DNA from: Pseudomonadota bacterium | Lineage (GTDB): Bacteria > Pseudomonadota > Gammaproteobacteria > UBA1113 | Assembly (NCBI GenBank): GCA_021781965.1 | Contig: JAJXVU010000003.1 | Span: forward strand, 15,880-79,879 | Reading direction: 5' to 3' | Length of the DNA stretch: 64,000 nucleotides | In this document: positions 36,730 through 36,978 of the stretch, in pieces | Layout of the letters: each line of letters opens with the position of its first letter | Numbering within the stretch: the first letter of the stretch is position 1 | Notes under the pieces: model-generated | What the model was told of the DNA's origin: nothing | The model's database searches: none | What the model saw: only the letters and a program-made list of their open reading frames with translations | Position numbers and translations under genes: made by a program

Positions 36730-36978
36730 ATGTCTGATAATTTAATAAAATTTAAACATGTGGTTAAAACACCACTTTCAACGATTTCTGTCGCTATTGA
36801 TAGCGTGAAACCATTTGTTCACGATTTGATTCTCCAAAAAAAGAAACCTGATTTTTATATTAATATTAGGCATATAGTCACAGGAAAAGAGCTTGAAACC
36901 ATTTTAAAACTGTTACATAATGTTGAATTGGCTGCGGAGCAAATTAATAATGCAATCTCCATACTGGAAGAAAATTAA
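36730..36978 (+). CDS. stand-alone DHp (HisKA-like dimerisation/phosphoacceptor) domain protein, 82 aa; candidate Spo0B-like phosphotransferase
   Basis: FKHVVKTPLSTISVAID resembles the HisKA H-box (hELRTPLtsI), followed by a helical C-terminal half. There is no ATPase domain. It lies between the hybrid HK and the RR. Confidence 0.45.
   Translation: MSDNLIKFKHVVKTPLSTISVAIDSVKPFVHDLILQKKKPDFYINIRHIVTGKELETILKLLHNVELAAEQINNAISILEEN

Follow-up and report, generated by a model that had tools for sequence, protein, structure and literature searches.

Hybrid histidine kinases depend on an intermediary that contains a histidine, and in many genomes no histidine phosphotransfer (HPt) gene is apparent for them. 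In Caulobacter (ChpT), Bacillus (Spo0B) and Sphingomonas (PhyT), kinase-derived phosphotransferases of the dimerization and histidine phosphotransfer (DHp) type carry the phosphoryl group from a receiver (CckA-Rec, Spo0F) to the terminal regulator (PMC3433190, PMC9981736, PMC5898713). We analysed a stretch of 64,000 nucleotides from a gammaproteobacterium of the UBA1113 lineage (assembly GCA_021781965.1, contig JAJXVU010000003.1; the whole stretch is called the window), in which a gene for an 82-aa protein, here named mini-DHp, lies between the genes of a hybrid sensor kinase and of an LqsR-family response regulator (Table 1). Comparison with related loci suggests that mini-DHp is a histidine phosphotransferase (H2) of minimal size, consisting of the DHp only, and that it acts in a relay running from kinase to receiver, to mini-DHp and on to the regulator, a reading that we favour with moderate confidence. 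Phosphotransfer of the Spo0B/ChpT kind is, on comparative grounds, the best-supported function, because mini-DHp and full-length kinases exclude each other, DHp-only proteins co-occur with hybrid kinases, ChpT-like intermediate forms exist, and the acidic residue after the phospho-acceptor histidine (H+1) was lost while the histidine itself was retained.

The kinase stop codon is at positions 36712-36714, the mini-DHp ATG lies 15 nt beyond it, and this short spacer is kept in the orthologous loci. Orthologues of mini-DHp form eight sequence clusters with 44-100% identity, and all those with visible context occupy the same slot, after the kinase and before the regulator. Pairwise dN/dS values were 0.10-0.15 for close orthologues and 0.14-0.38 for distant ones, with dS up to saturation. 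Since the open reading frame (ORF) has a Shine-Dalgarno sequence, a constant slot and dN/dS values of 0.10-0.38, we conclude that it is a real, conserved gene under selection. Residues F8, H10, K13-S20, A22 and P28 are invariant in the family (motif F8-x-H10-x-x-K13-T-P-L-S-T-I-S20-x-A22); H10, T14 and P15 are found in eight of eight clusters, and the other three histidines of the window protein are not invariant. The original prediction, made from the letters of the window without database searches, had marked an 82-aa ORF at 36730-36978 (+), and the gene was found at exactly these positions. It had also made its proposal depend on relatives that keep the ORF and its candidate histidine, and both are borne out by the eight clusters, the constant slot and the invariant H10.

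The mini-DHp ORF is in the reading frame of the kinase, with one stop and four to five codons in between, in the window and at four other loci (L001, L003, L004 and L011); this frame relation is not kept at L005 and L010. A fusion of kinase and mini-DHp by stop read-through was considered and rejected, as the frame differs at the latter two loci and each ORF has its own Shine-Dalgarno sequence; such a fusion seems unlikely.

The window protein had no match in Pfam (none at E ≤ 10) or NCBIfam, a profile of its family found nothing among PDB sequences, and BLASTP of the 82-aa protein against the neighbouring kinase was empty; resemblance to an H-box would therefore, by itself, be a mere motif. 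Homology became visible at the profile level. Divergent orthologues matched Pfam HisKA with the histidine in register (E 6e-5, 0.003 and 0.013), and the best of them reached 23.4 bits against the HisKA (PF00512) cut-off of 26.9, a curated threshold that genuine kinases also fail to reach (22 bits for LqsS-type kinases, described below, and 12.8 bits for the neighbouring hybrid kinase). In hhalign, the mini-DHp family aligned with the DHp of LqsS-type kinases over 75 columns comprising both helices (97% probability, E 3.7e-11), with the DHp family of the neighbouring hybrid kinase over the 26 columns of the H-box only (E 1.9e-5), and with a mixed set of PDB and kinase DHp sequences again over the H-box only (E 5e-6). 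In these comparisons, His10 aligned with H271 of the kinase and with the histidine of HELRTPL. Thus mini-DHp shares homology with a genuine kinase DHp over both helices and has the conserved acceptor histidine, with Thr at +4 and Pro at +5; at H+1, the family has V, N, I, R or D and is not consistently acidic. By profile homology, though not by the Pfam threshold, it is to be classed as a HisKA-type DHp.

AlphaFold2, run with five sequences, predicted a helix at residues 3-37, a loop and a second helix at residues 52-81, with a mean predicted local distance difference test (pLDDT) score of 83.5. Foldseek of this hairpin model against PDB returned only generic coiled hairpins (E > 0.5), and it cannot discriminate here because the fold is so simple. 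No catalytic ATP-binding (CA; HATPase_c) domain follows mini-DHp: the ORF ends after helix 2, and the 275 nt on its 3' side are a repeat element, followed by the regulator gene. The HisKA H-box, the helical hairpin and the missing catalytic domain had all been part of the original prediction; the first is above chance at the profile level only, the second agrees with the monomer model, and the third follows from where the ORF ends. Five family members had no match to Pfam SPOB_a (PF14689) or HPTransfase (PF10090) at E ≤ 10. Pfam Hpt (PF01627) did not match mini-DHp either, whose motif is HVVKTPL and not HxxKG and for which two helices are predicted. An exhaustive HMMER search of 1.8 billion cluster representatives found the family members alone, plus one false positive: P0036, a highly repetitive protein of 1585 aa that scored E 9e-11 via 11 repeated stretches and was rejected as a compositional or repeat artefact. 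Searching plasmids with the 82-aa protein by tblastn gave nothing outside the family, and scans of genome and metagenome contigs with the small-protein alignment gave no confirmed locus.

The origin of mini-DHp was traced through 80 LqsR-type loci, which are the loci in named genomes returned by a genome-wide scan with the regulator alignment. Six of them (from Legionella nautarum, metagenome-assembled genomes (MAGs) of Tatlockia and Legionellaceae, and others) have an ORF of 89-102 aa directly upstream of the regulator gene, with the H-box HFIRTPL or HDFRTPL, and all these small DHps match Pfam HisKA. The mini-DHp family aligned with them over its whole length in hhalign (96% probability, E 2.6e-9, 80 columns), and a hidden Markov model (HMM) built from them picked the mini-DHp ORF among the ORFs of the window (E 6.7e-7). 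At 46 other loci, the same HMM matched the DHp of kinases of about 430-520 aa whose genes end just 5' of the regulator gene (E 1e-9 to 1e-19). The N-terminal half of these kinases is hydrophobic; they contain HisKA and HATPase_c, and in NCBIfam they match the LuxN kinase core best. We call them LqsS-type because of this match, their position beside the regulator and the fact that lqsR normally clusters with lqsA and lqsS (PMC10653808). The small DHps aligned with the LqsS-type DHp with E 1e-24, and a 75-aa protein from a Thiotrichales MAG (KHEITTTL), encoded after a kinase with two receivers (HK-REC-REC) and before the regulator, did so with E 1.6e-8. Since mini-DHp shares 75 columns with the LqsS-type DHp and 26 with that of its neighbour, its profile identifies it as the DHp of the regulator's ancestral cognate kinase, stripped of sensor and catalytic domains, and not as a copy of the DHp of the adjacent kinase. 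Of the make-up of an LqsS/CqsS-type kinase (membrane sensor, DHp and CA), it keeps the DHp and the position adjacent to the regulator; by domain content it is a derivative of the LqsS-type family and not a functional member.

The distribution over the 80 loci points in the same direction. A full-length kinase is present at 46 of them, and not one of these 46 carries a mini-DHp or a hybrid kinase from the family of the window kinase, which makes mini-DHp and the full-length kinase mutually exclusive. All ten loci with a DHp-only protein are devoid of the full-length kinase. Eight of these ten have a homologous hybrid kinase (HK-REC, usually HK-REC-REC) on the same contig, and the contigs of the other two end nearby; mini-DHp therefore goes together with a receiver-bearing kinase. 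Counted from the other side, the homologous hybrid kinase occurs at 12 loci, eight of them with a DHp-only protein. The remaining class (20/80) has no full-length kinase, mini-DHp or hybrid kinase. A stricter link, between mini-DHp and the second receiver (REC2) of the kinase, was also considered, and it is weakened from both sides: L050 pairs a mini-DHp with a kinase that has only the first receiver (REC1), and at L013 and L078 the kinase has REC2 but is not immediately followed by a DHp-only ORF.

The residue pattern separates the two kinds of protein. The acidic residue at H+1 acts in ATP-dependent autophosphorylation (PMC3510030). It is E in 46/46 full-length kinases (H-box HE[LIM]RTPL), whereas only two of the 14 TPL-type DHp-only proteins keep an acidic residue there, the other 12 having V, N, I, R or F. 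The histidine, K/R(+3), T(+4) and P(+5) are invariant in the DHp-only proteins. This combination indicates that the histidine is still under selection and that the chemistry of ATP-dependent autophosphorylation is not. Such a pattern would be expected of a histidine loaded from an aspartyl-phosphate, and equally of a DHp kept only as a phosphatase.

Intermediate forms were found at two loci (L013 and L077). Their soluble proteins are LqsS-type, have DHp and HATPase parts but no membrane sensor, and are encoded beside LqsR-type regulators; one occupies the slot upstream of the regulator at a locus that also has HK-REC1-REC2. Relative to full-length relatives, the G1 and G2 boxes are degenerate in both, and in L077 the N-box Asn is lost as well. 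Their ChpT-like architecture appears not to be annotated as such. Since these forms lie between the full-length kinases and the DHp-only proteins, the loci can be arranged in a putative series from full kinase through DHp with a dead CA to DHp alone.

In the relay that we propose, the signal would be sensed through the solute-binding protein encoded upstream of the kinase, and the hybrid kinase would autophosphorylate on H271 and pass the phosphoryl group to its own D552 and/or D668. Mini-DHp, which probably forms a homodimeric four-helix bundle and presumably cannot autophosphorylate, would accept the phosphoryl group on His10 and hand it to Asp104 of the LqsR-type regulator, for which its docking specificity would be inherited. 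Phospho-acceptor sites are complete in the regulator and in both receivers of the kinase. Transfer is probably possible in both directions, in which case mini-DHp could also drain the regulator.

Several observations weigh against this proposal. REC2 is recognized as a receiver only weakly by sequence, and a single-sequence AlphaFold2 model of kinase residues 481-721 (REC1-REC2) had a pLDDT of 41.5. A gene for an HPt protein could lie in another part of the genome. In Legionella nautarum, a 77-aa ORF gave a weak Pfam Hpt match (E 0.07) and may be an HPt remnant or a very short canonical HPt. The small proteins encoded beside related kinases on Legionella plasmids are positional equivalents only, as their homology to the mini-DHp family was not demonstrable, and the label LqsS-type is not based on a direct comparison with L. 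pneumophila LqsS. Four loci have the hybrid kinase without a mini-DHp, namely L025, L027 and L061, whose kinases are REC1-only, and L078; the hybrid kinase can thus apparently work without it. Finally, the pattern at H+1 and T+4, kinase-negative and phosphatase-competent, fits a dedicated phosphatase equally well.

Because this pattern is equally expected of it, a phosphatase or sink dedicated to the regulator is the main rival, although we consider it unlikely. The DHp dimer would dock on the phosphorylated regulator and dephosphorylate it via Thr14, in the manner of the DHp in bifunctional HisKA kinases, and the regulator would be phosphorylated by another route, with the hybrid kinase or some other donor as the source. 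Mini-DHp comes from the DHp lineage that is cognate to the regulator, and the isolated DHp domain of EnvZ reportedly keeps OmpR~P phosphatase activity, a finding ascribed to Zhu et al. in 2000. The three REC1-only loci and L078, which apparently work without mini-DHp, also suit this explanation. However, phosphatase activity generally tolerates the loss of the histidine, which is invariant in every DHp-only lineage, even in very divergent ones. In addition, the full-length kinase has been replaced and a receiver-bearing hybrid kinase is present, so that a phosphatase would leave the regulator without an obvious cognate donor, and a sink alone leaves the ChpT-like intermediates unexplained.

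Alternatively, mini-DHp could be one half of a split kinase, with His10 phosphorylated in trans with ATP by the CA of the hybrid kinase or of another kinase before the regulator is phosphorylated. Here a DHp that bears the histidine and lacks a CA adjoins a kinase with an intact CA. EnvZ offers a parallel, in that its separate DHp and CA fragments complement one another, and HK1/HK2 of Mycobacterium tuberculosis (Rv0600c/Rv0601c) were reported as a split kinase, one kinase of that locus being DHp-only. The M. tuberculosis locus comprises two sensor-kinase genes and TcrA (PMC3544749). For mini-DHp, this explanation is improbable: the acidic H+1 that serves autophosphorylation is lost in most TPL-type mini-DHps and kept throughout the full-length kinases, the DHp of the hybrid kinase is of another lineage than mini-DHp, the association is specifically with receiver-bearing kinases, and the soluble intermediates have degenerate ATP-binding motifs.

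A stoichiometric inhibitor or scaffold would need no chemistry at His10: mini-DHp would form a heterodimer with the kinase DHp, or sequester the receiver of the regulator or REC2. Pairing of a DHp hairpin with a second DHp is possible in principle, and small helical proteins can regulate kinases, as Sda and KipI do with KinA. We regard this as quite improbable, given that conservation peaks in the catalytic H-box and not just at core heptad positions, and that the histidine and Thr(+4) are invariant over deep divergence. Inhibition by a heterodimer with the kinase DHp had been offered as the alternative in the original prediction; it is disfavoured because the two belong to different DHp lineages, mini-DHp being of the LqsS type and having the H-box alone in common with its neighbour. 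Finally, a decaying remnant of a truncated kinase gene without a function of its own, as might be supposed from the derivation by domain loss and from a family so tiny that only its members appeared among the cluster representatives searched, is very improbable in view of the low dN/dS at saturated dS, the gene's own Shine-Dalgarno sequence and conserved length, and its persistence in three or more DHp-only lineages that diverged independently, as well as in cassettes that moved between genomic neighbourhoods.

In Legionella, homologues of the kinase with both receivers (HK-REC1-REC2) are encoded by pLELO, by related plasmids and by a plasmid of L. lytica; chromosomal contigs of L. quateirensis, L. 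erythra and L. lytica carry them too. After each of these kinases, at -3 to +14 nt, lies an ORF of 72-75 aa, with an LqsR-type regulator alongside. The encoded proteins share an N-terminal H-[DE]-x-x-N (L-x-H-[DE]-x-x-N-S), and the conjugative plasmids that carry the ORF are common to L. pneumophila, L. longbeachae, L. anisa and L. sainthelensi.

Other Legionellales loci showed further variants of the arrangement. The 77-aa ORF of L. nautarum (L060 9304-9537) has a TTG start, contains HKIKGGA and lies between a hybrid kinase and a 93-aa mini-DHp. In the kinase of a Coxiellaceae MAG (L078 6343-8925), the acceptor Asp of REC1 is replaced by Glu and the acidic pair is degenerate; this kinase may represent a form fixed in a phospho-mimic state. 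The REC1-only kinase of Legionella massiliensis (L006/L025; L006 about 14500-16100) is located in an integrative conjugative element with tra genes and two csrA copies, and an insertion sequence with an rve transposase lies just downstream of it. No remnant of REC2 or mini-DHp was detected at the L. massiliensis locus by tblastn.

The kinase of the window is confirmed as a hybrid kinase, with two domains that are predicted to be receivers or receiver-like. In REC1, D502/D503, D552, S580 and K601 are invariant even in the 32%-identical L. massiliensis homologue, and the REC1 profile gave weak but consistent matches to PDB receivers. The acceptor-site residues of REC2 are conserved in homologues down to 35% identity, which is the identity between the window kinase and that of Legionella pLELO over 502 aa. 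In Pfam, REC2 of the pLELO homologue gave weak, sub-threshold matches to Response_reg (E 0.003, 18.2 bits, cut-off 30.2) and cREC_REC (E 3.5e-4), and hhalign related REC2 to REC1 weakly (E 0.009). The beta4 motifs, LVT[SG]x[FY] in REC1 and L[AV]TG[HYK] in REC2, resemble the FATGUY motif of intermediary receivers, to which we attach little weight. FATGUY has been noted in such receivers, its significance being called unresolved there (PMC9981736).

The location of mini-DHp between a hybrid kinase and a response regulator, as originally predicted, is confirmed, and the accompanying statement that the island holds no HPt gene stands as well: neither the cassette nor a motif search of the 64-kb window gave an HPt candidate. 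What the prediction lacked was the LqsR type of the regulator, the second receiver of the kinase and the probable descent of mini-DHp from the ancestral cognate kinase of the regulator. The window has no second H-box, and no lqsA-like synthase was seen in the cassette. Five genes form this cassette and move as a set through differing chromosomal neighbourhoods. The gene for the SBP_bac_5 solute-binding protein, a probable ligand-binding partner of the kinase, is also found beside the kinase at L001, L005, L006, L011, L013 and on pLELO. The XRE/S24-like gene is kept at L001, L005 and L011, and at L078 its homologue comes after the kinase. Outside the cassette, an ORF for a helical protein of 160 aa (31437-31919, minus strand) recurs beside it at L001 and L011, and a GerE/LuxR-type gene stands beside it at L005 and L011.

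Homologues of the window regulator are the LqsR family. Its receiver carries D15/D16, D104, T130 and K153, invariant in 24 homologues, and is followed by an LqsR-type output domain. The full-length PDB match, 6sy9, is presumably L. pneumophila LqsR. A paper on the LqsR structure is among the references of PMC10653808. The gene starts at 37254 and not at 37227: it has an AAGGAG Shine-Dalgarno sequence, the 307-aa form is found in orthologous contigs and in the public record, and the spurious ATG at 37227 falls inside an inserted palindrome repeat. Two such palindromes, the only copies in the window, separate the mini-DHp and regulator genes; their RNA fold has a z-score of -7.7, and they had no match in Rfam. 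They are present in the contigs of the same species (L007 and L008) and absent from the orthologous loci L001 and L004, and on this distribution they are not part of the ancestral cassette. They look like an element of the miniature inverted-repeat transposable element (MITE) or repetitive extragenic palindromic (REP) type and might attenuate read-through into the regulator gene.

Table 1 Location of the cassette features in the window and of related proteins at other loci (window positions, unless a locus or accession is given)
Feature	Position	Strand	Evidence or remark
XRE/S24-like protein, 229 aa, first cassette gene	32389..33078	+	Weak Pfam HTH_3 and Peptidase_S24
SBP_bac_5 solute-binding protein, abuts kinase start	33097..34548	+	Pfam
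Hybrid sensor kinase, 721 aa, N-terminal membrane/sensor part	34549..36714	+	Pfam, NCBIfam, PDB KinB/ZraS matches, alignments
Kinase DHp acceptor H271	35359-35361	+
Kinase HATPase_c	Residues 377-479		Pfam/NCBIfam
Kinase REC1, acceptor D552	About residues 496-604		Alignments, PDB receiver profile matches
Kinase REC2; D623/D624, D668, T696, K715	About residues 617-719		Alignments
Shine-Dalgarno GAGGG of mini-DHp gene	36720..36724	+	5 nt before ATG; read from sequence
Mini-DHp gene (82 aa, stand-alone HisKA-like DHp)	36730..36978	+	ORF, orthologues, dN/dS, AlphaFold2, hhalign, HMM
Mini-DHp H-box, residues 8-22	36751-36795	+
Mini-DHp His10 codon	36757-36759	+
Two tandem GC-rich imperfect palindromes, ~125 nt each	36997..37242	.	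Repeats; between mini-DHp and regulator genes
LqsR-family response regulator, 307 aa	37254..38177	+	PDB 6sy9_A full-length match, E 3e-33
Soluble DHp+HATPase protein, 248 aa, slot upstream of regulator	L013 7176-7922		Locus also with HK-REC1-REC2
Soluble DHp+HATPase relative, 261 aa	L077 8622-9407	-	Just upstream of mini-DHp gene, opposite strand
pLELO hypothetical protein LPO_RS16445, 75 aa	L017 2584-2811; NC_018141.1 147622-147849
Other Legionella 72-75-aa equivalents	L016 6197-6415; L080, L083, L087

A wider proposal, which seems to us quite possible and is put forward tentatively, is that the DHp-only proteins (72-102 aa) are an undescribed class of histidine phosphotransferases that arose, possibly several times, from stripped LqsS-type quorum-sensing kinases. 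They would have rewired the LqsR pathway into a four-step phosphorelay with a hybrid kinase dependent on a solute-binding protein and would extend to culturable Legionella and pLELO, and the series would capture the transition from kinase to phosphotransferase, which has only been inferred for Spo0B and ChpT. If so, some 80 residues folded as a DHp hairpin would add a third and minimal solution to the monomeric HPt and ChpT/Spo0B, and the smallest phosphorelay component of its kind. DHp-type phosphotransferases themselves are known; the novelty would lie in the DHp-only form. Mini-DHp would also be invisible to current annotation: it has no Pfam or NCBIfam match, and such proteins are labelled hypothetical. 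Their identification provides candidate partners for orphan LqsR-type regulators in Legionellales, and the comparative series opens the evolutionary path from kinase to phosphotransferase to direct tests. Positional equivalents are available on the widespread Legionella plasmid pLELO, in culturable strains that can be manipulated.

Among known systems, Sda, KipI and FixT resemble mini-DHp in being small proteins encoded near histidine kinases or acting on them. To our knowledge, no DHp homologue with a conserved phospho-acceptor histidine is among them, and no similarity of mini-DHp to these three was detected. Proteins of the HPt family (PF01627; LuxU, ArcB-C, Ypd1) take the H2 step proposed here, from the receiver of a hybrid kinase to a terminal regulator, but they are monomeric four-helix bundles with HxxKG, whereas mini-DHp has a HisKA H-box (HxxKTPL) on a two-helix hairpin. 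That a DHp without a CA can dimerize, be phosphorylated in trans, transfer to a regulator and act as a phosphatase is known from EnvZ domain A and HK2. EnvZ domain A is an engineered fragment; Rv0600c/Rv0601c split one kinase into CA and DHp halves, whereas the partner in the window is a hybrid kinase that is complete and comes from another lineage. Unlike EnvZ domain A and the mycobacterial split kinases, mini-DHp lacks the autokinase residue. The literature that we searched, which covers the field in part, contained no description of natural DHp-only phosphotransfer proteins.

With LqsS/LqsT-LqsR and CqsS/LuxN, the locus shares the LqsR-type regulator, and both helices of mini-DHp show homology to the DHp in the regulator-adjacent kinases of about 440 aa. 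It differs from LqsS/CqsS in having no membrane sensor, catalytic domain or acidic H+1, and its input would come from an unrelated hybrid kinase and a family-5 solute-binding protein. The closest functional parallel is with ChpT and Spo0B, which likewise present a transferable histidine on a kinase-derived DHp hairpin and do not autophosphorylate, as is proposed for mini-DHp. They are dimers, keep a non-catalytic, CA-like alpha/beta domain at the C-terminus and have roughly 190-250 aa, whereas mini-DHp consists of the DHp only; nor is it a member of their families by sequence, since it derives from a different kinase lineage, the LqsS type. The L013 and L077 proteins, with DHp and a degenerate CA, have exactly the ChpT/Spo0B architecture (PMC3433190, PMC9981736). 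Mini-DHp would thus represent a ChpT/Spo0B-like H2 phosphotransferase reduced to about 80 residues.

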